This document shows, piece by piece, positions 5,280 through 41,195 of a DNA stretch of 64,000 nt. A program made the position numbers and the translations under genes. The DNA lies in assembly GCA_001002325.1 (NCBI GenBank), contig LCNZ01000002.1:7093-71092 (forward strand), given 5' to 3'. The notes under the pieces were generated by a model. It ran no database searches and was not told where the DNA came from. It was given only the letters and a program-made list of their open reading frames with translations. How positions within the stretch are numbered: the first letter of the stretch is position 1; every line of letters begins with the position of its first letter. The stretch is from Candidatus Amesbacteria bacterium GW2011_GWB1_47_19 (GTDB lineage: Bacteria; Patescibacteriota; Microgenomatia; CAZETR01; Amesbacteraceae).

Positions 5280-5280
5280 A

Positions 5281-8570: not shown

Positions 8571-8571
8571 T

Positions 8572-23461: not shown

Positions 23462-23481
23462 AAAGAAGTATCCCTATAATA

Positions 23482-25475: not shown

Positions 25476-26185
25476 AAATTCTTTCTCCTGATGTGTTCAC
25501 TGGTCTTTAACAGGGAATCAAATGTTCCCATATCTGACCAATAGTCATTTTTCTTCAACAATATTAACTGTCCAATTTTAAGATATTCATTATTTAGATC
25601 CGTTATTTCTAATTCTCCCCGGGTTGACGGTCTAATTTTATCTATCATATCAAATACCCGGTTATCATAAAAATGTGGCCCCGTCACTACCAGGTTAGAA
25701 TTAGCCTTTTGCGCTTTTTCTTCAATCGATATTAATTTACCCCGACTGTCATATTTCGGAATTGCAAAACGATTGAATTCGGATGTTTTCCGTAAAAAAG
25801 ACATGGCGCCTGTGGCGAAAGCAGACACTTCGGATTTAAAATCATTTTCGTAATAATTATCACCCGCACAAACCATTATTGATTGATTTTGTGTAAATTT
25901 TCGGCATCTCAAAATAGCGTCGGACATTCCTGCTGGTGTCGGTTGTTCAACGTAGGTCAGCCGGACATCCCATTTCGCCGGTATATGATTCATCAACATT
26001 CTTATCTGGTTTCCGTGTGGTGGACCGCTAATAACCGCAATATCTTTTATTCCGGAGGAAAATATTGTGTGCAAGGGATAAAAAAACATCGGCAGGTTCC
26101 AAACCAGTAAAGCGTGTTTATTTACAGCCTTCGTAACTGGATTCAATCTGGTGCCTGTTCCCCCGGTCAGAACAATACCTTTCAT
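25472..26185 (-). CDS. hddC: Sugar-1-phosphate nucleotidyltransferase (HddC-like GDP-heptose pyrophosphorylase)
   Basis: MKGIVLTGGTGTRLNPVT (G-x-G-T-R-L) N-terminal signature of RmlA/GlmU-type NTP transferases; about 237 aa. Confidence 0.75.
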   Translation of the reverse strand: MKGIVLTGGTGTRLNPVTKAVNKHALLVWNLPMFFYPLHTIFSSGIKDIAVISGPPHGNQIRMLMNHIPAKWDVRLTYVEQPTPAGMSDAILRCRKFTQNQSIMVCAGDNYYENDFKSEVSAFATGAMSFLRKTSEFNRFAIPKYDSRGKLISIEEKAQKANSNLVVTGPHFYDNRVFDMIDKIRPSTRGELEITDLNNEYLKIGQLILLKKNDYWSDMGTFDSLLKTSEHIRRKNL

Positions 26186-26187
26186 TT

Positions 26188-27309
26188 CTAGATATTTTTG
26201 ACTTTTCTGATAACTTTTTGTCGAATCATATTTTTCATTGCTTCATTTGAAACATCCTCTATCCTGCCTTGGGTAAGTAACCAATCCCGATATGCCGCCA
26301 GTGATTTTTCCAGACTAACCTTTGGAATCCAACCCAATTTATTTAATCGGGATATATCAGATACCGTAGAGCGGGTATCACCAACACGAAATATTCCTGG
26401 AATTTGTGGTTCAAGCTTGCTATTAAATACTTTTAACATAGTCCGGGCAAACTCAATAGCGCTATATGCTTTACCGCCACCTACGAAGAATATCTCATTA
26501 TTTGCTCTGGGATCTTCAAGCACAATCAAATTAGCCCGGGCGACGTCAGCACAATTAACATAATCCCTTAATCCCATTCCGTCTTCAACCAATATTGGAG
26601 GTTTATTATTAAGAATTCTCATAGCAAACACTCTTAAGATTCCGGAATAGGCGTTGTAGATTGAATTGCGTGGTCCCTGAACATAAGTATATCTCAAACA
26701 TACCGTGGGTATTAAATATTTTTTTCCTAATGTTTGAGCTAATAACTCAACTGCATACTTGGATATACCATATGTCGTAATAGGCCGACATATATCTTCG
26801 GTCATTAGTACATTTTTGCATTCCCGCTTACATGTCGGACATCTAATTTCCCATTGCCCCGTTTCCAATTGTTCAATCGGTCTGGGTTCAGCCCAGAATT
26901 CTCCATGATTTTTACAATTCCATTTTCCGTCTCCCGCCACTGCTTGCGAGGAGGCAAAAACAATCTTTTTTATTGGTAACCTATTAGCTAATATAAGCTC
27001 AAACATTAGAGCCGTGCTTTCGGTATTTGTGTGGATAAAATGGCCAAAATCTGGCATGTAATCCTGATATGCCGCCATATGAAAAACGGCATCGACACCC
27101 CTCAAACTTCGGTATAAATCTTTGGGGCTACTGACATCACCGAGAATAAATTCAGCTTCTGGGGGGATATAACCGGGCTTGCCTTTAGGATGAACTCTTC
27201 TTTGCAGAGAATCCAGAATTCTTACCTTATACCCTTTCGATATCAGCAAGTCGACAGTATGAGATCCGATAAAACCTGCGCCTCCGGTAACTAAAACATG
27301 CTTATACAC
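26188..27309 (-). CDS. NAD-dependent epimerase/dehydratase (extended SDR) with an inserted Cys-rich zinc-ribbon-like segment
   Basis: VLVTGGAGFIGSH; YGISK (YxxxK). Insert KWNCKNHGEFW...IRCPTCKRECK (C-x2-H ... C-x2-C-x3-C). The track ORF extends to 27447, but the N-terminal 46 aa look non-SDR; GTG at 27309 giving MYKHVLVTGGAG is preferred. Start uncertain. Confidence 0.7.
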   Translation of the reverse strand: MYKHVLVTGGAGFIGSHTVDLLISKGYKVRILDSLQRRVHPKGKPGYIPPEAEFILGDVSSPKDLYRSLRGVDAVFHMAAYQDYMPDFGHFIHTNTESTALMFELILANRLPIKKIVFASSQAVAGDGKWNCKNHGEFWAEPRPIEQLETGQWEIRCPTCKRECKNVLMTEDICRPITTYGISKYAVELLAQTLGKKYLIPTVCLRYTYVQGPRNSIYNAYSGILRVFAMRILNNKPPILVEDGMGLRDYVNCADVARANLIVLEDPRANNEIFFVGGGKAYSAIEFARTMLKVFNSKLEPQIPGIFRVGDTRSTVSDISRLNKLGWIPKVSLEKSLAAYRDWLLTQGRIEDVSNEAMKNMIRQKVIRKVKNI

Positions 27310-27336
27310 AGCGCATATTATATAATAATTTTCCGG

Positions 27337-28182
27337 ATGAAAAAAAAGATCGCTATCGTCACTGGTGGTGCGAGAGGTATAGGGGCAGCCATAGCTCAGA
27401 GGATTGCCGGAGAAAATTACCACGTGGTCATATGTTCCAGATCTCAACAGGAAATTGATGATTTTATTAAGACTATGTCCCGATTGAAGTTACAATTATC
27501 CGGATTAGTAACTGACATCTCGAAATTTGGCCAATGTCAGAGATTATTTAACTTTATTCAGGGATTAAATGGAGAACTGGAAATATTGGTTAACAATGCC
27601 GGGATTTACGGACCTATAGGTAAGCTGGAAGAAAATTCGTATTTGGAATGGGAAGATACTATCAGGATTAATTTGCTCGGTACAGTTTACTGTACTCAAC
27701 TGGCAATTCCCATTATGCAGAAAAGAAAATCGGGGAAAATCATCAACATCTGCGGTGGGGGAGTGGGAGGAAAGGATCCTCTGGCTCGATTTTCAGCTTA
27801 TTATACATCCAAAACCGCCATAGCAGGATTTACTGAGGTAACAGCGGCTGAATTGGCCGAATACAATATTCAGGTTAATTGTATCGCTCCGGGTGCTGTA
27901 AATAGTCGTTTTACAGTCTACTTAATTTCTCAGGGGCGAAACAAAGCCGGAGATGAAATGTACACCAAAGCCATAAAGCAAAAAAAGACTGGAGGAGATT
28001 CTCCGGAATTAGCGGCAAGACTTGTATCATTTTTAATTTCAAATAAAGCAAACCATATCTCAGGCTGCTTACTAAGTGCTAAATGGGATAAGAAGGGGGA
28101 ACTGTCGGACTCTCGCACTTTCACTCCAAATCTATACAAATTAAGAAGAATTGACAACCGGAACTTCTGGGATCATGAATAA
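27337..28182 (+). CDS. Classical SDR oxidoreductase
   Basis: MKKKIAIVTGGARGIGAAIA; NNAG; YYTSK (YxxxK). ATG at 27337 is preceded by TATAAT at 27319-27324; the track ORF starts earlier (27298). Confidence 0.75.
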   Translation: MKKKIAIVTGGARGIGAAIAQRIAGENYHVVICSRSQQEIDDFIKTMSRLKLQLSGLVTDISKFGQCQRLFNFIQGLNGELEILVNNAGIYGPIGKLEENSYLEWEDTIRINLLGTVYCTQLAIPIMQKRKSGKIINICGGGVGGKDPLARFSAYYTSKTAIAGFTEVTAAELAEYNIQVNCIAPGAVNSRFTVYLISQGRNKAGDEMYTKAIKQKKTGGDSPELAARLVSFLISNKANHISGCLLSAKWDKKGELSDSRTFTPNLYKLRRIDNRNFWDHE

Positions 28183-29481: not shown

Positions 29482-30198
29482 TTATTTATCTGATGAATAG
29501 TGATCCCGGGTAAAATTCAAATTGGCTAAATTTCCAGTGTCGTACCATTTCTTAAGTTCGATAGCTTTGAATTTAATTCCCTTATTCACCATTAATTGCA
29601 TTGCTGCACAATCATTTAGCGACGAGTCGTTTGGATTTGCATTATACAATTTTCCCAAAGCGGACCAAAAATCCTTATAATCCTTTAGACCTACTAGTCC
29701 GATGTGAAATAAGTCCCATTCCGATGCCCCCTTGCGATTCATTTGCTTCATATATCCGTCTTTAATGGTAAAAGAACTCAAGTATTTAGTGTTAAATAAC
29801 TCGGGATCCAATCCTTTCGACCCCCCGTTCCAGTTGAATTTTTCCGGTGAAGGAAGGGAACCTTTTATTATCGTGTCGTTGCAGTGGAATATAAAAGGGC
29901 ATTGGAGTTTGTCTTTTGCCCTGAGCATTGAGTAACCTAAACTACTTCCGTCTCCCTGGTATTTATCTACCCATACAAACGTAAATTTCCTTCCCGGATA
30001 GGCTTTTATTAAATAGTCCCTGATCTTATATCCAAAATACCCCAGAGTGATTACAGATTCAATATCTGGAGAATATAGGTCGACTATATAATTTATTACG
30101 GGTCGCTTATTTAATAGAACCAACGATTTGTTGGTTTTGGCTGTCAATTCACCCAATCTGGATCCGGTGCCGGAAGTGGTAATTAATATTTTATACAT
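29482..30198 (-). CDS. Stand-alone nucleotidyltransferase (paralog of the N-terminal domain of 34355-35923)
   Basis: MYKILITTSGTGSRLGELT...LGYFGYKIRDYL...FVWVDKYQGDGSSLGYS...LQCPFIFHCNDTII is colinear with MKYKVLITTSGTGFRMGSL...LGYYGQYVKDFL...FIWVDKYTGRGSSLVYS...LQCPFIYHAGDTLV. Confidence 0.7.
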   Translation of the reverse strand: MYKILITTSGTGSRLGELTAKTNKSLVLLNKRPVINYIVDLYSPDIESVITLGYFGYKIRDYLIKAYPGRKFTFVWVDKYQGDGSSLGYSMLRAKDKLQCPFIFHCNDTIIKGSLPSPEKFNWNGGSKGLDPELFNTKYLSSFTIKDGYMKQMNRKGASEWDLFHIGLVGLKDYKDFWSALGKLYNANPNDSSLNDCAAMQLMVNKGIKFKAIELKKWYDTGNLANLNFTRDHYSSDK

Positions 30199-30574: not shown

Positions 30575-31258
30575 TTATATTCGATTCAAAAAATTCCAGG
30601 TGTTTTCGGCATTTACAGACCCGACCGTCATTTGTAAAGGTTTAAAGCGCAAGGCAGGACGAATTCCGCTCATTTTGTAATATTGGGTCATATTACTCTC
30701 GTCTGGTAATTTTGTAAGTCTGGCAACAGAAATATGCAGAATATTAGTCAAGGGCAAGGGAGAGAATCCTTCTCGTATACCATCACTAGATACGGTTTCC
30801 CTAGCACTTAATATCACTTGCGGAATATTTGTGGCCGCTATAACAGTATTCCCGCCTTTATCCACGAACATATAGTCAAAACTAAGGGTTAACCCTGGAA
30901 GACGCCTTATATTGTTTTCACCCAAAATTATTTTTCTCATCTTCTCTTCCTTCTCGGGTATTACTGCATCCTCCCTTTTTATCTCAAGCACGGTTGAGTG
31001 TAATGGGAAGTCTATACCAGCCATAAACAATTCTGCCCCCGTTGACTCTGCCACCTTTTGCAAAGGTTCAGTAATCCGCTTTAAAAACTCCTGCTGAGAA
31101 CTCTCATCAAAAGTAAGAGTGATACCAAATCTTTTTCTCAACTCTTCTTCTGGAAAAGATTTAAATTCCACAAACTCGCCCTGCAATGCACCCTGGTAGC
31201 CGAGTCTTGCATTTCCAATATATTTTACAATTGTCGGTAATCTAGTAATTGTTTCCAT
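30575..31258 (-). CDS. 2H-phosphoesterase-superfamily protein (LigT/cyclic phosphodiesterase-like)
   Basis: Two H-x-[TS]-x motifs about 90 aa apart: FPLHSTVL and ILHISVAR. The track start is a TTG at 31294; internal ATG (METITRL) at 31258 is preferred. Confidence 0.5.
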   Translation of the reverse strand: METITRLPTIVKYIGNARLGYQGALQGEFVEFKSFPEEELRKRFGITLTFDESSQQEFLKRITEPLQKVAESTGAELFMAGIDFPLHSTVLEIKREDAVIPEKEEKMRKIILGENNIRRLPGLTLSFDYMFVDKGGNTVIAATNIPQVILSARETVSSDGIREGFSPLPLTNILHISVARLTKLPDESNMTQYYKMSGIRPALRFKPLQMTVGSVNAENTWNFLNRI

Positions 31259-31265
31259 CGGCCGT

Positions 31266-31294
31266 ATTGTACTAAGCAATTTAATAAAATGCAA
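31266..31294 (-). promoter_or_regulatory. Sigma70-like promoter candidate TTGCAT-17-TACAAT (minus strand) for the 2H-phosphoesterase gene
   Basis: The -35 abuts the repeat copy; the -10 lies only about 7 nt from the ATG, so the transcript would be near-leaderless. Confidence 0.35.
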
Positions 31295-31444: not shown

Positions 31445-31726
31445 CTAATCCAGATGATGTTTATACGCTCTCATGTCACGGGTTTTGACACCTCTAACCG
31501 CTGCTTTCCTGATTTGACGGTTGCGTTCACTAAAGTTCTCATCAATCCCGTCTTTTATTGCACCTCGTTCGACGATTTCTTCCATCGGACCGTCCGAGTC
31601 ACCATATGCACTCCGGGCAACTAAATTCGCTAACATATTTCCAAAAATCCGAAGCGTAGCATCAACCATGATTAACGGAATCATCAACATACAACCACTC
31701 TTCTCTGGGTTTTCTCGGCTAGCCAT
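31445..31726 (-). CDS. Small hypothetical protein (93 aa), basic C-terminus
   Basis: ATG start; flanked on both sides by the two copies of the about 70-bp repeat; no recognisable motif. Confidence 0.35.
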   Translation of the reverse strand: MASRENPEKSGCMLMIPLIMVDATLRIFGNMLANLVARSAYGDSDGPMEEIVERGAIKDGIDENFSERNRQIRKAAVRGVKTRDMRAYKHHLD

Positions 31727-32074: not shown

Positions 32075-32992
32075 TCACCGGACCCCAACCCTGAAATCAA
32101 CATATCCGCGATAACACTCCTGAGCTAGAGTTAAAAGCTTCCCATGTATATCCGGATTGCAGGCACCGATAGCCACAGACTTCGTCTCCGCGGTGACCGG
32201 GTTATCTTCTAAATCTGTAGCCACTCCGCCGGCCTGTTCAGTCGCAAAGGCCCCGCATCTCACATCCCACTCACCTCCGATTGCGTGCGTAATCCAAGCG
32301 TGTCCTCTGGTAATAGCCTGACGTTGATTATTCACATTGCTGCCGGCCGACAATAAACTAATATCCGCGTCTAAAATATCCGGCAATCTGGCAATCATCG
32401 CCGAGTAGGGCCCGGCTGTAGTCGTTCGCAAAGTAGTATCCATAAATACGGTCGCCCTTTTTTTGTCCGGTTGCGGCATATGAACTTTCTCAATATGTTC
32501 CCCAGTGGGTATTAGTTTTTCATCTAGACCTACCTGGTATACCAAGCCTGTTTGACAAACTAATAACTCGCGCGAAAAAGGATCACAAATTGCACCCGCC
32601 AGAGGGCAGCCGTTTTCTTCTACAATCACTGTAGTTGTAGAGCCGGCAAGCCCGCCCTTATAAATACCGGTTCCATCCAGCGGATCAAAGATCCACCTTC
32701 GCCTACTTTCGCTTTTGCCTGAAGTACCTGATTCTTCTCCGGTAATTAAATCATGAGGGTATTTGTTAGTAATAATGTTTGCAATAACCGCCTCTGAAAT
32801 TCGATCTGCCTTTGTTTGCCACGTATTATCATGAGTCTTCAAAATCGCCACTAAATCTCCTGACCGGTGAAAACGCACTAATTTACGGCCACCCAAGATA
32901 GCCGCTTCAGCACAGACGATCGCATCTTTAGAAAATCCTAAATTCGTCAGTAACTCAGTTGGTCTGGCTTCTTCTTCCCTTAAGTTTCGCAC
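32075..32992 (-). CDS. Inositol monophosphatase-family phosphatase (second copy)
   Basis: WIFDPLDGTGIYKGG and GEWDVRCGAFATEQAGGVATDLEDNP motifs. Confidence 0.75.
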   Translation of the reverse strand: MRNLREEEARPTELLTNLGFSKDAIVCAEAAILGGRKLVRFHRSGDLVAILKTHDNTWQTKADRISEAVIANIITNKYPHDLITGEESGTSGKSESRRRWIFDPLDGTGIYKGGLAGSTTTVIVEENGCPLAGAICDPFSRELLVCQTGLVYQVGLDEKLIPTGEHIEKVHMPQPDKKRATVFMDTTLRTTTAGPYSAMIARLPDILDADISLLSAGSNVNNQRQAITRGHAWITHAIGGEWDVRCGAFATEQAGGVATDLEDNPVTAETKSVAIGACNPDIHGKLLTLAQECYRGYVDFRVGVR

Positions 32993-32993
32993 A

Positions 32994-33629
32994 GTGGAAA
33001 GGATTATATCACACTATAAGTTTAGTATACTTATTATTTATACCCCGGAAAGTAATCGTGATACAATCGATTCTATGGTCAAACCCCGGACCAGATTAAT
33101 ACTCAAAGAGATTAAACAGGTCCTAGATCACGTCGATGAGAAACAAGCCATAGATTTTATTAATGTCATTTTAAGTGCCAGGAGAATCGTTGTTTGTGGC
33201 GCGGGCAGAGTCGGAATTGCAACCAGTGCATTCGGTATGCGCTTATCACAATTAGGTTTGTCCGCCTTTAGTATAGGAGACAGTAATGTGCCCAGTATCG
33301 GTAAGCGGGATGTCTTACTAACCGCATCAGGTTCGGGAGAAACACAAACCATAATCGATATCACCTCAAGAGCAAAACAAAATGAGGTAAAAATCGCCTT
33401 AATAACAGCTAGCCCCAAATCAAGACTTGCCCAGATGGCTGATTGCATACTCATACTCAACTCCCCGACAAAATATAGCGATCATAAAAGTATTGAAACC
33501 AAACAGCCAATGACTGCACTAAATGAACAATGTCTCTGGATATTTTATGATTCTTTAGTTCTAGAACTCATGGAAATTATGGGTGAAACTAGTCAAAGTA
33601 TGTGGGCTAGACACTCGACTTTAGAATAA
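32994..33629 (+). CDS. SIS-domain sugar-phosphate isomerase (PHI/HxlB-like or SIS-only arabinose-5-P isomerase)
   Basis: RIVVCGAGRVGIATSAFGMRL...DVLLTASGSGETQ...KIALITASPKS, a single SIS domain with no CBS pair. Confidence 0.7.
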   Translation: MERIISHYKFSILIIYTPESNRDTIDSMVKPRTRLILKEIKQVLDHVDEKQAIDFINVILSARRIVVCGAGRVGIATSAFGMRLSQLGLSAFSIGDSNVPSIGKRDVLLTASGSGETQTIIDITSRAKQNEVKIALITASPKSRLAQMADCILILNSPTKYSDHKSIETKQPMTALNEQCLWIFYDSLVLELMEIMGETSQSMWARHSTLE

Positions 33630-33656
33630 AAAATTATTGTTATAATTATTAAACAA

Positions 33657-34358
33657 ATGAATAAATCATTAAAAGTAAAAACTTCGGACAGGAATTATTG
33701 GCTATCTGCTTCTTTGATTTGCGCAGATGTCAACAATCTTGCGGATGATGTAAGAATATTGGAACTATCGGGTATGGACTTTTTACACATTGACGTTATG
33801 GATGGCATGTTCGTTCCCCGATTCGGCATGTTTCCCGAACAGGTCGCCGGTATCAGGAAAATCTCTTCACTTCCGATGGATCTTCATTTAATGGTAGAAA
33901 ATCCGGAGCCTTACTTTGAAACGTTTCGTGATGCCGGCGTTGATTATATAAGTGTGCATGTTGAAGTTTGTAGGCATTTAAATCGCACGGTTTCTCTCAT
34001 CAAAAAGTTAGGCTGCAAAGCCGGATTAGCAATTAACCCTGCTACTCCAATTGAATTTCTGCCATATGTCCTGGATGATATCAAAATGATTAATCTTATG
34101 GGTATAAATCCTGGCATAGTAGGTCATAAGTTAATCGGGTTTACTTATGAAAAAATTCGTAGATTAAAATCAATTGTCGGCGAGCGGGATATTTTCATCG
34201 AGATTGATGGAGGTGTTACAACCGAATCCGCTTCCGAGATGATTCAAGCCGGTGCGAACATGTTAGTGTGTGGTTCGTCAACTGTCTTTAGAAAAGAAAT
34301 GTCTATCACCAAGGCAATTGAATCATTAAGGGTAAATATCGAAAAGTCCATTAAATGA
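33657..34358 (+). CDS. Ribulose-phosphate 3-epimerase-family protein (Rpe-like)
   Basis: LHIDVMDGMFVPRFG, DLHLMV, INPG..G, EIDGGV, VCGSS: the Rpe catalytic His/Asp pattern on a ribulose-phosphate-binding barrel. Confidence 0.75.
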   Translation: MNKSLKVKTSDRNYWLSASLICADVNNLADDVRILELSGMDFLHIDVMDGMFVPRFGMFPEQVAGIRKISSLPMDLHLMVENPEPYFETFRDAGVDYISVHVEVCRHLNRTVSLIKKLGCKAGLAINPATPIEFLPYVLDDIKMINLMGINPGIVGHKLIGFTYEKIRRLKSIVGERDIFIEIDGGVTTESASEMIQAGANMLVCGSSTVFRKEMSITKAIESLRVNIEKSIK

Positions 34359-35923
34359 AATATAAAGTTTTGATAACCACTTCTGGTACGGGGTTTAGGA
34401 TGGGTAGTTTGGTCGAAGATACAAACCAAACCCTTATAAAAGTCGGCGAAAAACCTATTTTGTCCCGCATAGTTGAATCCTACCCCCAAAATATTACTTT
34501 GGTGATCACACTGGGCTATTACGGTCAATACGTCAAGGACTTCTTGGAAATTGCGTATCCGGATAGAAAGTTTGAATTTATATGGGTTGATAAATACACC
34601 GGTAGGGGTAGCAGTTTAGTCTATTCAATATCAAAAGCTTCTGCCAAGCTTCAATGCCCGTTTATTTATCACGCGGGTGATACATTAGTCAAAGAAACGA
34701 TTCCGCCACCAAATGCTAACTGGAATGGGGGAATGCTTAATTTAAATCTTTCACAATATCGCTCTTTCGACATCCTTAAAGATAAGGTAGTTAAGTTTTA
34801 CGATAAAGGTGTGGATGATACAGATTATGTTCACATCGGTCTATTAGGTATCAAAGATTATGAATTATTTTGGAAAAGTTTGAGATCAATTCTAAAAGCA
34901 AGCAATCCTGATATCACTTACTTAAGTGATGTTCATGTTTTAGCAAAAATGCTGGAGTTAGGTACCGAGTTTAAATTAGAGAAATATGAAACCTGGCACG
35001 ATGTTGGTTATCCTGAAGGATTATATAAAGCCAGAGTTGATTATAGAGATAAATATACCGTCCTAGACAAAAAGAGTGAAGCCATATATTTCGTCGGTAA
35101 TAAAGTTATAAAATTTTTTTCAGAATCAAATGTAGTCAGTGATCGGATAAAACGGGCAGAGTTATTATCTGGTTTAGTACCTAAAATTGTTAACGAGAGA
35201 TCTAACTTCTATGCATATTCATATGTAAAAGGTGATTTATTTGCAAATATTGTAAACAAAAATAATTTTTTGGATTTATTAAAATGGGCGTCTAAATATT
35301 TATGGCAGCCGCTGAAAGATTTAGACAAAAATGAATTCGTAAAAGCTTGTATCAAATTCTACAAAGAAAAAACATATGAGCGGGTAAAAATGTATCTTAA
35401 AAAGAAAATAATTAACGATAAAGCAGATAGAATTAACGGATTAGACACTCCATCAATTTCGGATGTTTTATCAAAAGTGGATTTTATTGAAATATGTCAG
35501 ACCGAACCATACAGATTTCATGGAGACTTTATTCTGGATAATATATTAAAAACTGAAAATGGATTTTGTCTACTGGATTGGAGACAGGATTTCGGTGGTA
35601 GAATCGATATGGGAGATCGCTATTATGATTTGAGTAAGTTGAGCCATAATTTATTAGTCAATCATCGAAAAGTAAATGGACATCAATTCAAAATAATAGA
35701 ACAGGATCGTGATATTACCTGTGAGGTTGAAAGAGAACAGAGATTTATAGATTGTGAAAATATACTTTTTGACTTCATTAATCAAAATAATTACAATGCT
35801 CGGCGGGTTAAAGTATTAAGAGGTATAATTTGGTTGAATATGTCACCTTTACATGAACCTCCTCTCGATGACTTTTTATATTATTTTGGTAAATATCATC
35901 TTTGGAAGAGCCTGAATGAATAA
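34355..35923 (+). CDS. Bifunctional nucleotidyltransferase (N-terminal) / APH-ChoK-type kinase (C-terminal) fusion
   Basis: N-terminal VLITTSGTGFRMG NTP-transferase fold (paralog of 29482-30198). C-terminal FHGDFILDNIL (Brenner HxDxxxxN catalytic loop) and LLDWRQDFGGRIDMGDRYYDL (DFG-like Mg-binding D) of aminoglycoside/choline/sugar-1-kinase family. Confidence 0.7.
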   Translation: MKYKVLITTSGTGFRMGSLVEDTNQTLIKVGEKPILSRIVESYPQNITLVITLGYYGQYVKDFLEIAYPDRKFEFIWVDKYTGRGSSLVYSISKASAKLQCPFIYHAGDTLVKETIPPPNANWNGGMLNLNLSQYRSFDILKDKVVKFYDKGVDDTDYVHIGLLGIKDYELFWKSLRSILKASNPDITYLSDVHVLAKMLELGTEFKLEKYETWHDVGYPEGLYKARVDYRDKYTVLDKKSEAIYFVGNKVIKFFSESNVVSDRIKRAELLSGLVPKIVNERSNFYAYSYVKGDLFANIVNKNNFLDLLKWASKYLWQPLKDLDKNEFVKACIKFYKEKTYERVKMYLKKKIINDKADRINGLDTPSISDVLSKVDFIEICQTEPYRFHGDFILDNILKTENGFCLLDWRQDFGGRIDMGDRYYDLSKLSHNLLVNHRKVNGHQFKIIEQDRDITCEVEREQRFIDCENILFDFINQNNYNARRVKVLRGIIWLNMSPLHEPPLDDFLYYFGKYHLWKSLNE

Positions 35924-36443
35924 AATGAAAAACTTTATTATCGATGTCGACGGAGTGTTGACTGACGGCCAGTTCCATTACTCAGCAGAAGGAAAAATAA
36001 TGAAAGTATTTGGTCCAGACGACGCCGACGCTTTAGCCCTACTTAAAGAAAAAATGTATATCCATATGATATCCGGCGATAAAAGAGGCTTTCCCATAAC
36101 CAAAAAAAGGGTAGCCGAAGACATGAAATTCCCACTGAATCTGGTAAGTACCTTTGAGAGGATAGAATGGATAAAAAATAAATTTAATCCCAGCGAGACC
36201 ATCTATATTGGAGACGGTATTTACGACGCCTTAGTTTTTAAAGAGGTAGGCTACTCAATAGCTGTTGCCAACGCTTGTGACATTGCCAAAAAATATGCTG
36301 ACTTCGTTACGGTTAGAAAAGGCGCGGAAGGGGCGGTAGCTGAAGCGGCCTTACATATTATGGACAAGTTCTTTGAACCGATAGATTTAAATAATTTGAA
36401 ACCAAAACACGGTTCAGGCGTCTGGAAATCTGGCAAACAGTAA
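35916..36443 (+). CDS. HAD-IIIA KdsC-family sugar-phosphate phosphatase
   Basis: FIIDVDGVLTDG, ISGDKR, YIGDGIYD, VRKGAEGAVAEA align with the E. coli KdsC motifs LDVDGVLSDG / ITGRK / YVGDDLID / GGRGAVRE. Confidence 0.75.
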   Translation: MNKMKNFIIDVDGVLTDGQFHYSAEGKIMKVFGPDDADALALLKEKMYIHMISGDKRGFPITKKRVAEDMKFPLNLVSTFERIEWIKNKFNPSETIYIGDGIYDALVFKEVGYSIAVANACDIAKKYADFVTVRKGAEGAVAEAALHIMDKFFEPIDLNNLKPKHGSGVWKSGKQ

Positions 36444-36459
36444 ATCACGGGAAACGGTT

Positions 36460-37320
36460 ATGTCTAAATTACTTACAAAACTTTGGCAGATCTTTGAACA
36501 GGTAGTGTTTCATTATTCTTACCCCAGATACAATTACCCCTTATATTTCGTAGCCAAGCGCTATTGTAAATTCTACGAAAACAACGAAAATGGGAACCTC
36601 TCTACTAACGGCGAATTATTCTTTATTACCAGTATACTAAAACAAATTGACCCAGAGGTTTTATTTGATATCGGTGCCAATAAAGGAGAGTATTCGCAAT
36701 TAATATTAGATCAATTCCCTGATTGTATTATTCACTGTTTCGAACCCGATAGCAGGGTATTTTCCATACTTAAGACCAAATATAAAAATATTAACAATAT
36801 TAAGTTAAATCACTTGGCAGTATCCGATCACAACGGTAAAGCAAAATTCTATCTAAACAAGGACCCTGGACTGAATTCTTTATTTGACATGAATAATATC
36901 GGTTATCATTATGACAATATGCTTTCAACGGTAAGTCTTGAAACTATAGATAATTACTGTAAAACTCATTATATTAAAACTATCGATTTTGTAAAAATCG
37001 ATGTTGAAGGAGCTGAGCTGTCGGTTTTAATGGGAGGACCAAGAATGTTATCGGGTAATAGAATAAAAATGATTCAGTTTGAATACGGACATGCAGCCAT
37101 ATCTTCCAAGACCTTCTTAAAAGATATATATGATTTACTGTTAGGTTACAACTATACTATTTATAAAATTATGCCCCTGGGTTTGCTTCATCAGCCTTAT
37201 TCACCCTATAATGAGCACATCGCTTTTGCCAATTACCTGGCTGTAAATTCGAAAGTCAAAATCAATTCTGAATATTTAATAAATCGACCAGATATTTATC
37301 GTCAAGTTCCCATAATATGA
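36460..37320 (+). CDS. FkbM-family methyltransferase
   Basis: LFDIGANKGEYS...CFEPDSRVF...IDFVKIDVEGAELSVL, the defining FkbM pattern. Confidence 0.8.
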   Translation: MSKLLTKLWQIFEQVVFHYSYPRYNYPLYFVAKRYCKFYENNENGNLSTNGELFFITSILKQIDPEVLFDIGANKGEYSQLILDQFPDCIIHCFEPDSRVFSILKTKYKNINNIKLNHLAVSDHNGKAKFYLNKDPGLNSLFDMNNIGYHYDNMLSTVSLETIDNYCKTHYIKTIDFVKIDVEGAELSVLMGGPRMLSGNRIKMIQFEYGHAAISSKTFLKDIYDLLLGYNYTIYKIMPLGLLHQPYSPYNEHIAFANYLAVNSKVKINSEYLINRPDIYRQVPII

Positions 37321-38447
37321 TTACCGTTTTCTGCAACGTATATATAAATTCTCTGGAAAAGCTATCACTTTTTAAAGATACATTCAAAAATGTATTTCCT
37401 ATCAGCGATAACTGGCTTATCAATATCCGCGGTAAGTATAAAGACCAAGTAATTAAACAAATAAAAAAGATTCCGGGTAACAATCGCCAATGCACTTTTT
37501 TTCAAAATCTTAACGATGACGATTGGGCAGAAAGCGCTAGAGAAATGATAAAGGATGCAAAATATGACCACATCTATATATATCTGGAAGATCATTTTTT
37601 ACAGCAACCACTTTCACATTTCCGAAATGTAATAAATGATGCTATAAGGATACAAACGGACTTCATCCCCTACTCCTTTTTTGATATTGGAATGAGTACT
37701 AAGAGCGTTGAAATCTATAATCCGACAACCAGCCGGTATTTCGAAACATTTATATTGACACCCGAACTATTACCCCTGATACGCTCCTTCAACCCAAATT
37801 TCTATCCAATCTCTCTGGTAGGAATATATTCCAAGACATTATTAATTAAAGTCCTGAAAGCTGAAGATAAGAAAAAGTTGTTAGTTCATCCTTATATACA
37901 ATTATTCATGCAAAATGTTTTATTCACATATCCACGAAACCGTCGTTTAATTTTCTTTTTGAACAAAGTATTACAGATTTATAGGCTAGTGCTAAATACC
38001 CCAAAAAGCCCAATGAATATCGAAAGATCAATTCATGATATCGAGTTAAGTTTACTGCCAATAAAAATAAGTATTTTAAAGCAGGAATTGTTTGCAAACT
38101 GGGATGATGATAACGGTAGTTTAAACCTCAGTTTAATTAAGAGAGGTCTGTATCCAAAAAAACTTTTATGTACAGATAAGAACAACAACAACTCCGGTGC
38201 TAAATTATCCCGAGTTTTGAATTTGTCTAAAGGTGGTTGTTACTCCGCTCAGTACCATCCTGAAATAGGTCGAATAGTAAATATTCCTAAAAAGGAGATA
38301 TCAGTTATTCAAGGAAGTCTGATTATAGAGGGGATGGGAGAAAGGTATATTGCGAATTCTGGTAAAAAGATGAATATTTACGCAAATATACCGCATAAAA
38401 TAACAGCTCGAAAAATTACGAAATATCGGTCTTCAATCTACTTCTGA
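37317..38447 (+). CDS. Hypothetical protein (376 aa), no recognisable family
   Basis: Soluble, AT-rich; contains HIYIYLEDHF (possible acidic DxD-like site). ATGA-coupled to the FkbM gene upstream and followed directly by a GT2. Confidence 0.5.
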   Translation: MITVFCNVYINSLEKLSLFKDTFKNVFPISDNWLINIRGKYKDQVIKQIKKIPGNNRQCTFFQNLNDDDWAESAREMIKDAKYDHIYIYLEDHFLQQPLSHFRNVINDAIRIQTDFIPYSFFDIGMSTKSVEIYNPTTSRYFETFILTPELLPLIRSFNPNFYPISLVGIYSKTLLIKVLKAEDKKKLLVHPYIQLFMQNVLFTYPRNRRLIFFLNKVLQIYRLVLNTPKSPMNIERSIHDIELSLLPIKISILKQELFANWDDDNGSLNLSLIKRGLYPKKLLCTDKNNNNSGAKLSRVLNLSKGGCYSAQYHPEIGRIVNIPKKEISVIQGSLIIEGMGERYIANSGKKMNIYANIPHKITARKITKYRSSIYF

Positions 38448-38450
38448 TAT

Positions 38451-39254
38451 ATGACAGCTCCGTTGGTCTCGGTAGTCTTGGCATCATATAATAACGCCGG
38501 ATTAATTTCGGAATCCATTCGAAGTATACTCAATCAAACTTACTCCAACTTCGAGGTAATAATTGCTGATGACGGATCTGATGACGATAGTCAAAGTATT
38601 ATTAATAAGTTTGCTTCCGCATATCCCAGAATTAAAACCATTTTAAGCAAACAAAACGAAGGTATTTCAAATAATCGGAATAAGGCAATCAGAAAAGCTA
38701 CAGGTACATACATAGCAATTGTTGACTCAGATGACATCTGTTTACCAACTAGGTTATCAGAACAAGTCAAATATTTGGAGAATCACGCGAACGTGGGAGT
38801 CTTGGGTACCAAATGGTACGTTTTTACAGATAATCCGGATAACTTTGTTAAAGGTAATTTAAGCATTAATGATATTAACGCTGGAAAAGTACCTGTTCAT
38901 AATCCCACAACTATGATTAGAAAACAGATTTTTGATAATTATGGACTATTCGATTCCCGCATCCGCTACTGTGAGGACGTTGAATTGTACTACCGCTGGT
39001 ATAGTCAGGGTGTAGTTTTCAGAAATTTGAATAGATATTTAACAAAGTACAGGGTAGCTCATGGAAACAATACAGGTGAAAACATCAATGCTCTTTTGTA
39101 TTGGCAACTTTTCAAATTAAATATGATGGCGATTACAAAATATAAAATAAGATTTTCTTTATCTGGATATTTATTTACTCTAAAATTATTTTTATATTGC
39201 CTGTATCGTTCCTTACGATTAAATCATATATATTCTGTGACTAGAGATATATGA
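38451..39254 (+). CDS. GT2-family glycosyltransferase
   Basis: VSVVLASYNNAGLI...EVIIADDGSDDDS...AIVDSDD (DxD). Confidence 0.8.
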   Translation: MTAPLVSVVLASYNNAGLISESIRSILNQTYSNFEVIIADDGSDDDSQSIINKFASAYPRIKTILSKQNEGISNNRNKAIRKATGTYIAIVDSDDICLPTRLSEQVKYLENHANVGVLGTKWYVFTDNPDNFVKGNLSINDINAGKVPVHNPTTMIRKQIFDNYGLFDSRIRYCEDVELYYRWYSQGVVFRNLNRYLTKYRVAHGNNTGENINALLYWQLFKLNMMAITKYKIRFSLSGYLFTLKLFLYCLYRSLRLNHIYSVTRDI

Positions 39255-40345
39255 TTACGAAAACAATCTGCTTAGTCAATTTAAACGCTTACTGTTTGTT
39301 TAATCAGAAAAGCGAAGCCCCTATGGGAGGTGCAGAACTGGACATGTATACCTTGGCTCAGGGTCTTAAAAAAAAATATAACGTTACATTTATCACAGGC
39401 GATTGGGGTCAGAACCCTGAAGAAACCGTCCATGAAATCAGACTTATCAGATCAGTCAACTTAAAAGGTAACTATTTGTCAGGCTTACTGAAATTTATTA
39501 TCGCCCTTATCAAAGCAGATTCAGAGATATATATTTCTTCAGGAGCAGGACCGGAGGCAGGTCTGATTTGTTTATATAGTAGATTGTTCGGAAGAAAATA
39601 TATTTATCGGTCTGTCTCATCATTTGATTGTGATAACAGCTATATTAAAGGACACAGGCTATTGGGGTTAATATATTTATTTGCGGTAAACAATTGTAAT
39701 AAATTTGTAACCACCGTTAAAAATCAAAAAAAGCTATTATCTATAAGTCACCCGGGGGTCATACCCCGTGTTACCCATATTAATCAGGGACTAAAGATTT
39801 TCAAACGTAAAAATAATAAAAAGGCCGGTGTACTATGGGTTTCTCGCTGTGTCCCGTCTAAACATCCGGAATTGTTTATTGATTTAGCTAAGAGATATAA
39901 GAATTTAAAGTTTACCATGATTTGCCCCAAACAAGGAGGATTAGACAGCTTTTACGAAGACGTTAAATCACAGGCCATGCTGGTACCTAATTTAAAATTT
40001 ATCAATTACGTACCTTTTAAACAAATTCAGAAGTTCTATGACCGGTCATATATTTTTATTAATACATCCGACTTTGAAGGTTTTACATATACATTAATCC
40101 AATGCGGACAGGCTGGAACCCCGGTAGTTTATTATAGGGTAAACCCGGATGGAGTAATTACTAAACACGATTTAGGATATTTCTCTAACGGGAATTATCG
40201 ATTAATGTGCAGCCAAATCAGCACTCTATCCCGTAAAAATACTTTATGGAGGAATAAATCAGAAGCGATATCGAAGTATTTCCTTAAATTTCATGATATA
40301 GACAGCTTGATACCGAAGTGGACGAAAATATTTAACTCTCTGTAA
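39251..40345 (+). CDS. GT4-family (GT-B) glycosyltransferase
   Basis: N-terminal GGAE; C-terminal FINTSDFEGFTYTLIQCGQAGTPVV (E-x7-E region). Confidence 0.65.
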   Translation: MITKTICLVNLNAYCLFNQKSEAPMGGAELDMYTLAQGLKKKYNVTFITGDWGQNPEETVHEIRLIRSVNLKGNYLSGLLKFIIALIKADSEIYISSGAGPEAGLICLYSRLFGRKYIYRSVSSFDCDNSYIKGHRLLGLIYLFAVNNCNKFVTTVKNQKKLLSISHPGVIPRVTHINQGLKIFKRKNNKKAGVLWVSRCVPSKHPELFIDLAKRYKNLKFTMICPKQGGLDSFYEDVKSQAMLVPNLKFINYVPFKQIQKFYDRSYIFINTSDFEGFTYTLIQCGQAGTPVVYYRVNPDGVITKHDLGYFSNGNYRLMCSQISTLSRKNTLWRNKSEAISKYFLKFHDIDSLIPKWTKIFNSL

Positions 40346-40352
40346 AATTAAT

Positions 40353-41195
40353 ATGAGTCTGGATTTACATACATATGAGCTTACCTACTCAACCGGAAAT
40401 CACTTTAGTTTTGGAAAAAATTGGCAGAATTTCCTTAACTCTATTGATAACCTGCGAATTAATAAGTCTAAGATATCCCTATCTGAGTTTCTTGGAGGTG
40501 AGAAAAATATTAAAGGTAAATCGTTTATTGACTTCGGCAGCGGAAGCGGATTGTTTTCTTTGGCTGCATATCTATTAGGGGCATCAAGAATCGTTAGTGT
40601 AGATATCGATAATGCATCTTTAGAGTGTACTGAAACATTGAGAAGTAATTATGGCAGACCAACAAATTGGTCAATTACTAAGGGTTCGGCTTTGGATAAA
40701 CAGTTTATCAAATCTCTTGGAAAATTTGATATTGTATATTCATGGGGAGTACTTCACCACACCGGGGACATGTATCAAGCGTTAAATAATGTATCAAGCT
40801 TAATCGCACCAAGAGGTATATTTTATGTTTCTATTTATAATAAAACTACCAGTTGGCTTCAGGGTGGTCCTTCCTGGCAGTGGTTACGGATCAAAGCTAT
40901 TTATAATTCTTCAAATTCGGTTATTAAACAATTGATGCTATCGTGTTACACCTTGGTTCAGATTATAGGTTTAATATGTATCGCTCGAATAAACCCTGTT
41001 TCCTATATTTATAATTACAAAAACAACCGGGGTATGAGTTGGAAACACGATCTGATTGACTGGTTGGGTGGCTATCCTTACGAATATGCTACGCCGGACG
41101 AGATCATTAAACATCTGAAAATTTTACACTTATCGTGTATAAAGGTAGTTCCTACAAAAAATACCGGCTGCAATGAATTCTTATTTGTTCGGTGA
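40353..41195 (+). CDS. Class I SAM-dependent methyltransferase
   Basis: FIDFGSGSGLFSL (motif I), VSVDID (motif II acidic). Confidence 0.75.
   Translation: MSLDLHTYELTYSTGNHFSFGKNWQNFLNSIDNLRINKSKISLSEFLGGEKNIKGKSFIDFGSGSGLFSLAAYLLGASRIVSVDIDNASLECTETLRSNYGRPTNWSITKGSALDKQFIKSLGKFDIVYSWGVLHHTGDMYQALNNVSSLIAPRGIFYVSIYNKTTSWLQGGPSWQWLRIKAIYNSSNSVIKQLMLSCYTLVQIIGLICIARINPVSYIYNYKNNRGMSWKHDLIDWLGGYPYEYATPDEIIKHLKILHLSCIKVVPTKNTGCNEFLFVR

Follow-up and report, generated by a model that had tools for sequence, protein, structure and literature searches.

A widespread patescibacterial gene cassette with a predicted role in making a nucleotide-activated sugar from a phosphorylated ketose

In the nucleotide-heptose route (GmhA, HldE or HddA/HddC, GmhB), a SIS isomerase is followed by an anomeric kinase, a HAD phosphatase and a nucleotidyltransferase (NT). 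HldE is a kinase–NT fusion, and the phosphatase acts between its two activities. The closest known system to the locus described here is the phage pathway for UDP-D-arabinofuranose, which was published in 2025–2026 (PMC13326640; He et al. 2026, Nat Chem Biol). Phages RB69, DLP3 and HY126 convert ribulose 5-phosphate (Ru5P) successively to Araf5P, Araf-1,5-P2, Araf1P and UDP-Araf (PMC13326640). AfhE, an NT-kinase fusion termed a D-arabinose-5-phosphate kinase, turns arabinofuranose 5-phosphate into the 1,5-bisphosphate. The HAD phosphatase AfhF takes away the 5-phosphate, after which AfhE carries out the uridylylation. The genes for the A5P isomerase, AfhE and AfhF (RB69 gp55, gp53:52 and gp51; DLP3 gp83–81) serve the formation of arabinosyl-5-hydroxycytosine DNA (PMC13326640).

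Gene content of the cassette

The window, a stretch of 64,000 nucleotides from Candidatus Amesbacteria bacterium GW2011_GWB1_47_19 (contig LCNZ01000002.1), is a glycan island over its entire length. An ORF check bore out the preliminary description of four adjacent, co-directional genes (SIS, RPE, NTK and HAD), all on the + strand, with overlaps of 4 bp (RPE/NTK) and 8 bp (NTK/HAD). The HMM assignment it had asked for gave an HxlB-type SIS protein, an Rpe, an NT-kinase fusion and a HAD protein of the KdsC subfamily. The unit extends beyond these four genes: the + strand operon runs on to 41195, and a divergent operon carries a standalone NT paralogue, NT2.

29482–30198 (−): NT2, standalone NT paralogue of the NTK N-terminal domain (45% identity)
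32075–32992 (−): divergent phosphatase of the inositol-monophosphatase family (Pfam PF00459, 80 bits)
32994–33629 (+): SIS-only sugar-phosphate isomerase, PHI/HxlB type (TIGR03127, 178 bits)
33657–34358 (+): Rpe-family ketose-phosphate 3-epimerase of a cassette-specific clade (Pfam PF00834, 201 bits)
34355–35059 (+): NTK N-terminal domain, sugar-1-phosphate nucleotidyltransferase fold (Foldseek: MurU, LicC)
35060–35923 (+): NTK C-terminal domain, APH/ELK-fold kinase (HGDFILDN and DWRQDFGG motifs; fold match to RB69 gp52)
35916–36443 (+): cap-less HAD phosphatase, KdsC subfamily (TIGR01670, 76 bits; DVDGVLTDG motif)
36460–37320 (+): FkbM-family methyltransferase (PF05050, 67 bits; TIGR01444, 94 bits)
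37317–38447 (+): 'unk376', GT-A-like domain with a C-terminal cupin-like domain (weak Pfam matches of fused relatives)
38451–39254 (+): GT2 glycosyltransferase (Pfam)
39251–40345 (+): GT4-type glycosyltransferase (Pfam)
40353–41195 (+): SAM methyltransferase, last gene of the operon (Pfam)

The SIS protein exceeds the cut-off of NCBIfam TIGR03127 (HxlB/6-phospho-3-hexuloisomerase; 160 bits) and scores only 29 bits with KdsD and 20 with GmhA. Among solved structures it matches B. subtilis YckF/HxlB (2e-30), AF1796, an HPS–PHI fusion and MJ1247 best, and it retains the GSGET and C-terminal RHxxLE motifs. It is thus of the PHI/HxlB type and not, as proposed earlier, an arabinose-5-phosphate isomerase of the KdsD/KpsF type; nor is it a GmhA paralogue. 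Its true start is probably the ATG at 33075 and not the GTG at 32994, which would give a protein of 184 aa, the length of its homologues in related loci. The carbonyl shift that PHI-type enzymes normally catalyse is C2/C3 and not C1/C2, so that an aldose-forming role for SIS is assumed.

The Rpe-like protein scores 215 bits with TIGR01163 (cut-off 212.6) and 172 bits with the AlsE model (cut-off 271), and all catalytic His/Asp/His/Asp and Met residues are retained. Its clade is marked by the near-invariant motifs VPRYG, INPGIVGHKLI (replacing NPGFGGQ) and CG[TS]ST. These motifs and the constant SIS partner speak against a housekeeping Rpe found here by chance.

NTK is a 522-aa fusion with weak family matches to an NTP-transferase at its N-terminus and an APH-type protein at its C-terminus; fold searches with the predicted model (pLDDT 92.7) confirmed both domains. 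The best Foldseek matches of the NT domain were MurU (4y7u, 1e-12) and LicC (1jyk), and among viral models it matched RB69 gp53 at 1.4e-7. In the window, the near-invariant Lys25 of NTK is replaced by Gln. The kinase domain (pLDDT 93) has the invariant residues H389 G390 D391 … N396 and D408 W409 R410. Among proteins of known function, RB69 gp52, the kinase half of the AfhE homologue, matches it best (Foldseek, 6.9e-12, TM 0.64), and by analogy it would be an anomeric kinase. PDB matches scored far lower and spanned several kinase types (MTR kinase, GlcN kinase, choline/ethanolamine kinases, APH(2''); E at least 9e-6, TM about 0.45–0.55).

For the HAD protein, the TIGR01670 score lies below the cut-off of 107, and the KdsC and KDN-9-P phosphatase models gave 62 and 55 bits; it is predicted to take off the terminal (ω) phosphate. 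A scan of window ORFs other than five long ones inside paralogue arrays turned up neither KdsA nor KdsB, in agreement with the earlier view that this is not a Kdo pathway.

NT2, a standalone paralogue that is new here, is 70% identical to the NT2 of locus L072 and has an intact GxGxR…K motif. In NTK, the NT motif is substituted at 10 of 16 loci with NT2, compared with at most 5 of 46 without it (p = 1.3e-4), suggesting that NT2 makes the NT domain of the fusion redundant. L072 has an orthologue of the inositol-monophosphatase-family protein (37% identical), encoded between HAD and NT2, and L040 has one close to its cassette; this gene may tentatively be counted as part of the unit.

The FkbM gene directly downstream of the phosphatase gene probably encodes the enzyme that tailors the cassette sugar. 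The same slot is taken by FkbM in L020, L063, L064 and L066, by TylF in 17 loci and by a 378-aa Methyltransf_23+14 protein in 39 loci. unk376, which has no Pfam match of its own, has homologues in 14 loci and is a candidate for a dedicated transferase of the cassette sugar; the same domain in SIS fusions weakly matches Glycos_transf_2 (5.8e-4) and Cupin_2 (5.4e-5). The unk376–GT2–GT4–methyltransferase block recurs 3′ of the cassette in L005, L010, L012, L013, L017, L033 and L068, at 40–55% identity. A canonical heptose set (GmhA, GHMP kinase, NT, GmhB, transaldolase) lies apart from the cassette in the same window (20490–27447).

Co-occurrence, fusions and an alternative feeder

Co-occurrence of the four genes across genomes, a check also suggested in the preliminary description, was determined for 68 species-level loci with NTK, 42 of which have at least 2.5 kb of upstream sequence. 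SIS and RPE directly precede NTK in 36 of these 42, and one further locus (L045) has an NT–SIS fusion. SIS without Rpe occurs at none of the species-level NTK loci with enough flank, and a KdsC-like HAD phosphatase was found at 55 of 62 loci. The order SIS–RPE–NTK–HAD repeats in dozens of species and several phyla, far more than chance would allow. New here is a cassette that belongs to cells and is widely distributed, chiefly in metagenome-assembled genomes of Patescibacteria. The NTK tree, which carries no support values, is star-like.

Further fusions join NTK to HAD at its C-terminus (P0097/L003), NTK to TylF (P0004), and a GT-A/cupin domain to the N-terminus of SIS (L031, L064, L066, L067). 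Together with NT–SIS, they indicate that the pathway steps belong together and support the proposal of one functional module making an NDP-sugar from a phosphorylated ketose.

A second variant (variant B) occurs in about 10 loci and on one marine viral contig. Its NTK and HAD are orthologous to those above, and a PMI-type cupin and a class-II-aldolase/GatZ-like protein take the place of the non-homologous SIS and RPE. The GatZ family includes fructose-6-phosphate (F6P) C4-epimerase activity (PMC11907403). Either feeder would comprise one epimerase and one isomerase; the chemistry typical of the folds is C3 inversion for SIS/RPE (variant A) and C4 inversion for variant B, and the same product is not obvious. 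The Rpe-containing two-enzyme feeder, which differs from that of the phage system, is new here.

Order of steps and identity of the sugar

Most probably (probability about 0.68), the cassette by itself suffices to turn a ketose phosphate of central metabolism into a rare aldose in NDP-activated form, which adjoining glycosyltransferases put into a surface glycan. The Rpe-like enzyme would epimerise the ketose phosphate and the PHI-like SIS protein would isomerise the product to an aldose that retains its terminal phosphate. The kinase domain of NTK would then phosphorylate the anomeric hydroxyl to give a 1,ω-bisphosphate, and the KdsC-like phosphatase would take off the terminal phosphate. An NT domain, either that of NTK or, in the window, more likely NT2, would couple the sugar 1-phosphate to NMP, and a methyltransferase would tailor the sugar. 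We infer both the site of phosphorylation and the order of kinase and phosphatase by analogy: the kinase probably acts first, given the precedent of AfhE/AfhF, whose order is the opposite of the sequence phosphatase, kinase, NT put forward in the preliminary description (PMC13326640). For the sugar itself, a pentofuranose from Ru5P or xylulose 5-phosphate (Xu5P) is a tentative first choice; D-altrose or D-allose, formed from F6P via allulose 6-phosphate, is possible with less probability, and a 4-epimeric hexose made via 3-hexulose 6-phosphate and tagatose 6-phosphate appears unlikely, as does, equally, some other sugar, heptose included.

That earlier order, in which HAD dephosphorylates the SIS/RPE product to a free sugar, the kinase acts at its C1 and the NT activates it as in salvage (AmgK/MurU, NahK, trypanosomatid arabinokinase/pyrophosphorylase), is unlikely. 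In its favour, the two activities of a kinase–NT fusion usually follow each other directly in a pathway, the APH-fold neighbours MTR kinase (2olc), maltokinase (4u94) and GlcN kinase (6hwl) use unphosphorylated sugars, and MurU, the best NT match, is the partner of AmgK. The eukaryotic D-arabinose route, as outlined in PMC11301363, likewise runs from Ru5P to A5P (SIS domain) and then through a phosphatase to a kinase/pyrophosphorylase. However, AfhE/AfhF, the sole characterised homologous system, proceeds from kinase to phosphatase to NT (PMC13326640), and GmhA/HldE/GmhB shows that a phosphatase step can split the activities of a kinase–NT fusion. Release of a free sugar would also forfeit the furanose lock and risk leakage.

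Somewhat less likely still is a cellular counterpart of the phage pathway, in which SIS would act on Ru5P as an arabinose-5-phosphate isomerase, Rpe would boost Ru5P from Xu5P and the product would be NDP-D-arabinofuranose. Conversion of 3-hexulose 6-phosphate to F6P geometrically corresponds to that of Ru5P to A5P with one additional C1 carbon, which would give the arabino configuration. The transaldolase of the heptose cluster is a precedent for precursor-supply genes within sugar clusters, and in cyanophage S-SRM01 a KpsF-type SIS protein, an NT-kinase and a HAD protein sit in a glycan locus, not a DNA-modification locus. If Rpe, which scores above the rpe equivalog cut-off, merely supplied Ru5P, the pathway would collapse to the phage arabinose route. 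Against this, phage systems and Kdo clusters do without an Rpe, in the cassette it is present whenever SIS is, and its active-site loop is clade-specific. Variant B does not drop the epimerase but swaps it for one of a different fold, suggesting that epimerisation is an obligatory step to a non-central intermediate. D-arabinose, the product suggested earlier, is one of several candidates, and the strict epimerase requirement argues, if anything, against it.

It is very improbable that NTK is LicC/LicA-like and forms a CDP-linked head group from a non-anomeric hydroxyl or small alcohol made by SIS, RPE and HAD, for phosphodiester decoration (phosphocholine, phospho-sugar): LicC, a CTP:phosphocholine cytidylyltransferase, is the best sequence-level PDB match of the NTK profile (1.5e-7), choline/ethanolamine kinases are among the fold matches, and in some databases homologues go under 'choline kinase' or 'CTP:phosphocholine cytidylyltransferase-like'. 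But these kinases are neither the best matches nor a separate group, the phage UDP-arabinose enzyme reportedly has LicC and MurU as its best matches too, choline chemistry gives no role to two linked sugar-phosphate enzymes and a phosphatase, and Pfam detected no LicD-type phosphotransferase in the operon.

Comparison with known systems

The cassette shares with the nucleotide-heptose pathways the logic of isomerase, anomeric kinase, HAD phosphatase and NT. It differs from them in the kinase fold (APH/ELK instead of ribokinase-like or GHMP), in a SIS protein that is not GmhA-type, in a HAD protein that is KdsC-type and not GmhB-type, and in the additional Rpe. The earlier analogy with AmgK/MurU is apt, as MurU is the best structural match of the NT domain and both systems combine an APH-fold anomeric sugar kinase with a minimal NTP-transferase. 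AmgK and MurU are, however, two separate proteins without significant sequence similarity to the cassette, use a free amino sugar from recycling as substrate (MurNAc salvage to UDP-MurNAc) and have no isomerase, epimerase or phosphatase. Compared with HxlB/YckF of the RuMP cycle, the cassette SIS passes the equivalog cut-off and keeps the motifs, but no hexulose-phosphate synthase is present alongside it and the SIS and RPE genes sit inside a glycan operon. The cassette Rpe shares its catalytic residues with housekeeping and AlsE-type epimerases of the Rpe family and differs in the loop signature; it is without the marker residues of the AlsE clade (PMC12216980).

The closest likeness is to the phage pathway. 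In both, a gene for a SIS isomerase precedes one for an NT(N)–kinase(C) fusion, of equal architecture, and one for a HAD phosphatase follows; the overall logic, conversion of a ketose phosphate to an NDP-sugar without a mutase, would also be shared. The PDB neighbours MurU, LicC, 6hwl and 3ham are those reported for the phage proteins. NTK is by profile and structural-model comparison a remote homologue of AfhE (about 18% identity). Its profile aligned by hhalign with the S-SRM01 NT-kinase over 454 columns (probability 93%, E 2.8e-7), which RB69 gp52 in turn matches at 5e-20; the direct hhalign probability for gp52 was 37%. Full-length NT-kinase fusions among viral Foldseek models match NTK at 8e-25. 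Among the cassette proteins, the NT-kinase is the only one demonstrably homologous to the phage system, BLAST similarity of SIS and HAD to their phage counterparts being weak or absent. The cassette SIS is PHI/HxlB-type, the phage SIS KpsF/KdsD-type; the KdsC-type HAD protein has 175 aa, and the phage HADs, to which it shows no BLAST similarity, are GmhB/PNKP-like proteins of 113–128 aa. The cassette further differs in its obligatory Rpe-like epimerase, in its methyltransferases and cellular glycan synthesis instead of DNA hypermodification, and in a product that is probably other than arabinose. The statement that no pathway of such composition was known holds for the Rpe-containing cellular version but no longer for its SIS, NT-kinase fusion and HAD core, whose enzyme logic is the same as in phages making UDP-arabinofuranose.

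Composition and conservation of the cassette

The preliminary description had proposed a four-gene module with a possible route to an activated pentose or ketose. An ORF check confirmed the four genes on one strand, and the profile assignment it had called for gave each product a family, although the two domain matches of the fusion protein (NTK) were weak. The cassette and the divergent genes next to it are as follows.

32994-33629 (+): SIS-only protein (SIS), 6-phospho-3-hexuloisomerase (HxlB) type
33657-34358 (+): Rpe-family protein (RPE)
34355-35923 (+): NTK, nucleotidyltransferase (NT)-kinase fusion, 522 aa; NTP-transferase and APH matches both weak
35916-36443 (+): KdsC-subfamily HAD phosphatase (HAD), 76 bits, under the cut-off; motif DVDGVLTDG
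29482-30198 (-): NT2, a standalone NT paralogue
30575-31294 (-): ORF of 239 aa, no family match
31445-31726 (-): ORF of 93 aa, no family match
32075-32992: inositol-monophosphatase-family gene, in a divergent operon with NT2

RPE and NTK overlap by 4 bp, NTK and HAD by 8 bp. Because its homologues are 184 aa long, SIS probably starts at the ATG at 33075, giving 184 aa instead of 211 aa and a divergent intergenic region of 82 bp. The plus-strand operon extends without real gaps to 41195 and encodes, beyond HAD, an FkbM methyltransferase, a 376-aa protein (no match in the Pfam search), GT2 and GT4 glycosyltransferases and a SAM methyltransferase. A promoter and terminator scan gave nothing exceeding the shuffled expectation, and an Rfam search of the window gave no match. 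The two ORFs of 239 and 93 aa lie between NT2 and the inositol-monophosphatase-like gene; a homologue 33% identical to the 239-aa product is encoded directly 3′ of the HAD gene in the related locus L013.

SIS scored 178 bits against TIGR03127 (HxlB), passing the curated equivalog cut-off of 160, and matched YckF at 2e-30; in the same profile search the rival models KdsD and GmhA reached 29 and 20 bits. RPE scored 201 bits on the Pfam model, 215 on the rpe equivalog (cut-off 212.6) and 172 on the AlsE model (cut-off 271), and every catalytic residue is kept. The clade to which it belongs is marked by three near-invariant motifs: VPRYG, CG[TS]ST and, replacing NPGFGGQ, INPGIVGHKLI. The preliminary description had considered that SIS might be a GmhA paralogue and RPE the housekeeping Rpe present by chance. 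Neither is the case: the GmhA score is far below that of HxlB, and RPE accompanies the cassette across phyla and carries the motifs of its clade, including the altered loop. An AlsE type was likewise rejected, as the AlsE model remained under its cut-off and the AlsE-clade marker residues described in PMC12216980 are absent; this is not decisive, because the β8 motif G[TS]S of RPE resembles AlsE. No 3-hexulose-6-phosphate synthase (HPS) gene was found in the window or beside the SIS gene in related loci; in both, the constant partner of SIS is an Rpe-family gene, not HPS.

NTK has more than 2,300 homologues; among the 120 listed, full-length identity is mostly 45-50%, and Patescibacteria account for most of the named sources. 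When one genome per species was scanned, 72 loci were obtained, every one in a metagenome-assembled or single-cell genome. They belong to Patescibacteria, Bacteroidota, 'Bdellovibrionales', Gammaproteobacteria, Limisphaerales and DPANN archaea, and the window proteins were mapped onto them by BLAST. SIS and RPE lie directly upstream of NTK in the window's order in 36 of the 42 loci with at least 2.5 kb 5′ of NTK, and one further locus has an NT-SIS fusion. SIS without RPE never occurred in the mapped loci. Of 62 loci, 55 have the HAD gene, which follows NTK directly in 46. Co-occurrence, proposed earlier as a check, thus shows the four genes to be a linked unit. Fusions join NTK to HAD (homologue P0097), NTK to a TylF methyltransferase (homologue P0004), NT to SIS (locus L045), and SIS to a GT-A-like/cupin domain that corresponds to the window's 376-aa protein. 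The block of 376-aa protein, GT2, GT4 and methyltransferase is kept in seven loci, and a methyltransferase is nearly always found 3′ of HAD (FkbM in the window, TylF-type in 17 loci, a 378-aa Methyltransf_23+14 protein in 39).

At two related loci, L084 (the context of P0004) and the contig of homologue P0002, the cassette adjoins Wzm/Wzt ABC exporter genes with a Wzt_C carbohydrate-binding domain. Such a position hints at a chain-terminating function, and the cassette sugar may cap the end of an ABC-transporter-dependent polysaccharide. A sulfotransferase gene is present at L084 as well, and B12-binding radical SAM genes on the P0002 contig.

The whole 64-kb window appears to be given over to glycan assembly. 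GC content falls from about 47% in its flanks to about 35% in the stretch from ~12 to 52 kb. Beyond the cassette operon it contains the following.

450-8570 and 53697-57479: tandem arrays of five ~535-550-aa paralogues and of ~420-aa Wzx-type flippase paralogues
20490-27447: separate canonical nucleotide-heptose set (IMPase-family, GmhB-like HAD, transaldolase/FSA, GmhA-like SIS, GFO/IDH/MocA oxidoreductase, HddA-like GHMP kinase, RmlA/HddC-like NT, SDR epimerase/dehydratase)
45335-47218 (-): asparagine-synthase-type amidotransferase in the glycan island, between methyltransferase and GT4 genes
51038-51643 (+): a further GmhA-like SIS_2 protein, on the margin of the low-GC island

Two of three scanned members of the five-paralogue array matched PMT_2/ArnT-like GT-C glycosyltransferases. 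The transaldolase of the heptose cluster looks like a precursor supply for sedoheptulose-7-P, and the amidotransferase may amidate a uronic acid.

The NT-kinase fusion and its associated enzymes

The predicted structure of NTK (pLDDT 92.7) has two domains, the N-terminal one matching MurU and LicC and the C-terminal one matching APH-fold kinases. When modelled alone (pLDDT 93), the kinase domain gave a mixed list of folds, comprising MTR kinase, glucosamine kinase, choline/ethanolamine kinases, APH(2''), maltokinase and fructosamine-3-kinase, and all matches to solved kinases had E values of at least 9e-6 and TM scores of about 0.45-0.55. The Pfam Choline_kinase model did not match NTK, and APH reached 20.8 bits. 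A kinase of the LicA/LicC phosphocholine class, which the preliminary description had kept in mind, was therefore dismissed: choline/ethanolamine kinases are merely some of many APH-fold matches, and the best match is the phage protein RB69 gp52.

NT2 shares 45% identity with the N-terminal domain of NTK and 70% with its counterpart in L072, a related locus in which an orthologue of the inositol-monophosphatase-family gene adjoins NT2. The signature Arg/Lys of the NTK NT motif is substituted in 10 of 16 loci with NT2, including the window (K25Q), and in at most five of 46 loci without it (p = 1.3e-4). NT2 itself keeps the Arg in 22 of 22 cases and the Lys in 21 of 22. As the NTK motif is substituted mainly where NT2 is present, this sequence pattern fits the idea that NT2 and the NT domain of NTK perform the same reaction, and the working nucleotidyltransferase in the window may be NT2.

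About ten loci (L037, L047, L049, L050, L052, L054-L057 and L073) lack SIS and RPE and keep the same NTK and HAD orthologues. In this variant B, one gene encodes a phosphomannose-isomerase-type cupin of 109-117 aa and the other a protein of ~331 aa that is a distant relative of GatZ/KbaZ and of class II ketose-bisphosphate aldolases. C4-epimerase activity converting fructose-6-P to tagatose-6-P has been described for GatZ and KbaZ (PMC11907403). A marine viral contig is likewise of variant B, and its NTK is 44% identical to that of the window. Since these genes replace SIS and RPE (variant A) beside the same NTK and HAD, we read the feeder as having arisen on two occasions from unrelated folds, in both cases by pairing a putative ketose-phosphate epimerase with a putative isomerase. 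A neighbour-joining tree of NTK, calculated to look for a separate variant B clade, was star-like, carried no support values and showed variant B interleaved with variant A.

Proposed pathway and candidate sugars

In the pathway we propose, the Rpe-like enzyme would epimerise a ketose phosphate and SIS would isomerise the product. The kinase domain of NTK would then phosphorylate the anomeric position, HAD would strip the terminal phosphate, and NT or NT2 would attach the nucleotide, followed by methylation of the sugar and its transfer by the adjacent glycosyltransferases. The product is probably a rare, methylated sugar nucleotide. The preliminary description had placed the phosphatase before the kinase; we would favour the reverse order by analogy, because of the phage precedent and the logic of heptose pathways.

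As to the sugar, a pentose route from a Ru5P-like ketose phosphate is one candidate. Both feeder families natively take such substrates, the 6-phospho-3-hexuloisomerase (PHI) reaction has the geometry of the Ru5P-to-A5P conversion with one extra carbon, and the characterised relative makes arabinofuranose (Araf). A simple arabinose route is disfavoured by an epimerase that is obligatory, has an altered active-site loop and is swapped in variant B instead of being lost. These features suggest a ketose intermediate from outside central metabolism, which would point to a route from F6P via allulose-6-P to altrose- or allose-6-P. RPE lacks the AlsE-clade marker residues. A 4-epimer route, from F6P via 3-hexulose-6-P and its 4-epimer to tagatose-6-P, also fits; it is consistent with SIS as a true PHI and RPE as a near-native Rpe, and with variant B's GatZ-like enzyme, but leaves variant A without an obvious aldose-forming step.

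Our most far-reaching reading is tentative, with a probability of roughly two in five. According to it, the cassette would make a nucleotide sugar new to biology: NDP-D-altrose or -allose; NDP-D-talose or -tagatose, via 3-hexulose-6-phosphate epimerised by the Rpe-family enzyme; or NDP-D-lyxo- or -xylofuranose. Once methylated, this sugar would be a surface signature of Patescibacteria and DPANN archaea and might serve as a cap that ends the chain and is recognised by Wzt-type ABC exporters, and two unrelated epimerase/isomerase pairs would have been independently recruited to one NT-kinase/phosphatase module common to cells and viruses.

The literature was searched for the cassette itself and for glycan pathways with xylulose, arabinose or a hexuloisomerase, and no account of the cassette came to light. 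The earlier statement that no such pathway is known hence stands for the cassette and has to be withdrawn for its core logic, which is now known from phages. The cassette is among the more widespread uncharacterised sugar-nucleotide modules of uncultivated bacteria. Given the number of NTK homologues and the prevalence of Patescibacteria among the named sources of those listed, it offers a concrete, testable candidate for a sugar characteristic of the cell surface of organisms with almost unknown envelopes. Genes annotated as '6-phospho-3-hexuloisomerase' or 'ribulose-phosphate 3-epimerase' in these small genomes are likely to be taken for RuMP or pentose-phosphate metabolism, whereas here they point to glycan synthesis. 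The cassette might hold new enzymes, such as a hexulose or heptulose phosphate epimerase and a new anomeric kinase, which could serve rare-sugar nucleotide synthesis.

Comparison with Kdo, heptose and phage pathways

Neither KdsA nor KdsB was found in Pfam/NCBIfam scans of the operon and the other window ORFs scanned; the view that this is not a Kdo pathway is thus upheld. The activation core logic is also known, in other folds, from heptose pathways. The cassette differs from the GmhA/HldE/GmhB pathway in that SIS is not of the GmhA type (20 bits), the kinase has an APH fold and HAD belongs to the KdsC subfamily.

According to PMC13326640 (NAR 2026), which cites He et al. (Nat Chem Biol 2026) and Mahler et al. 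(2025), phages including HY126, RB69 and DLP3 make UDP-D-arabinofuranose for arabinosyl-5-hydroxycytosine DNA. As laid out in that text, Ru5P is first turned into Araf-5-P by a SIS isomerase. The bifunctional AfhE then forms Araf-1,5-bisphosphate with its C-terminal kinase domain, the HAD phosphatase AfhF takes off the 5-phosphate, and the N-terminal NT domain of AfhE yields UDP-Araf. The RB69 gene order, SIS (gp55), NT:kinase (gp53:52, the AfhE equivalent) and HAD (gp51, the AfhF equivalent), is that of the cassette minus Rpe, so that NTK, like AfhE, has a SIS isomerase gene upstream and a HAD phosphatase gene downstream. The best structural matches which the same text gives for the phage protein (4y7t MurU, 1jyk LicC, 3ham, 6hwl) are also those of NTK. 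As modelled, NTK has the AfhE-type architecture, with an N-terminal NTP-transferase and a C-terminal APH/ELK-fold kinase in a single polypeptide.

The NTK profile aligned to the NT-kinase of cyanophage S-SRM01 with a probability of 93% (hhalign, E 2.8e-7, 454 columns), and RB69 gp52 matches this cyanophage protein at 5e-20. Foldseek searches of viral models with the NTK model recovered full-length NT-kinase fusions at up to 8e-25, RB69 gp52 at 6.9e-12 (TM 0.64) and gp53 at 1.4e-7, scores far better than for any solved kinase. Direct hhalign of NTK against gp52 gave a probability of just 37%, tblastn of NTK gave no RB69-type match, and the direct sequence search of phage genomes had one real match only, the marine variant B contig. 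By these profile and model comparisons, NTK is a remote but detectable homologue of AfhE-type NT-kinases. SIS and HAD belong to subfamilies other than those of the phage partners, and BLAST of window SIS against gp55 and of window HAD against gp51 showed weak or no similarity. Because the feeder enzymes differ, the NTK substrate is probably not the arabinofuranose-5-phosphate of AfhE.

Further arrangements were seen in cyanophages and RB69.

S-SRM01 (L081, MW015081), 858-8855: KpsF-type SIS, NT-kinase fusion and small HAD, with GDP-mannose dehydratase, GDP-fucose synthase, fucosyltransferase, GT2 and FkbM methyltransferase as neighbours
S-SKS1 (L082, NC_020851), 2064-5602: NT domain fused to a RibB-type 3,4-dihydroxy-2-butanone-4-phosphate synthase; downstream an AfhE-like kinase, a small HAD annotated 'phosphoheptose isomerase' and a transaldolase
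RB69 (L076, NC_004928), 7709-8095: gp51

The S-SRM01 locus is of the glycan type, and the phage module is therefore not confined to DNA modification. The S-SKS1 genes show the NT/kinase/HAD module with yet another feeder. Several public phage records label the arabinose-pathway HAD, RB69 gp51 with its homologues in JS98 and S-SKS1, as 'phosphoheptose isomerase', which appears to be a propagated misannotation.

RB69 and S-SRM01 have a KpsF-type SIS alone as feeder, S-SKS1 the NT-RibB fusion and a transaldolase, and the cellular loci variant A or B. We read NT-kinase plus HAD as a mutase-free activation module that is portable and can be served by different feeders; newly described for phage DNA arabinosylation, it is apparently general.
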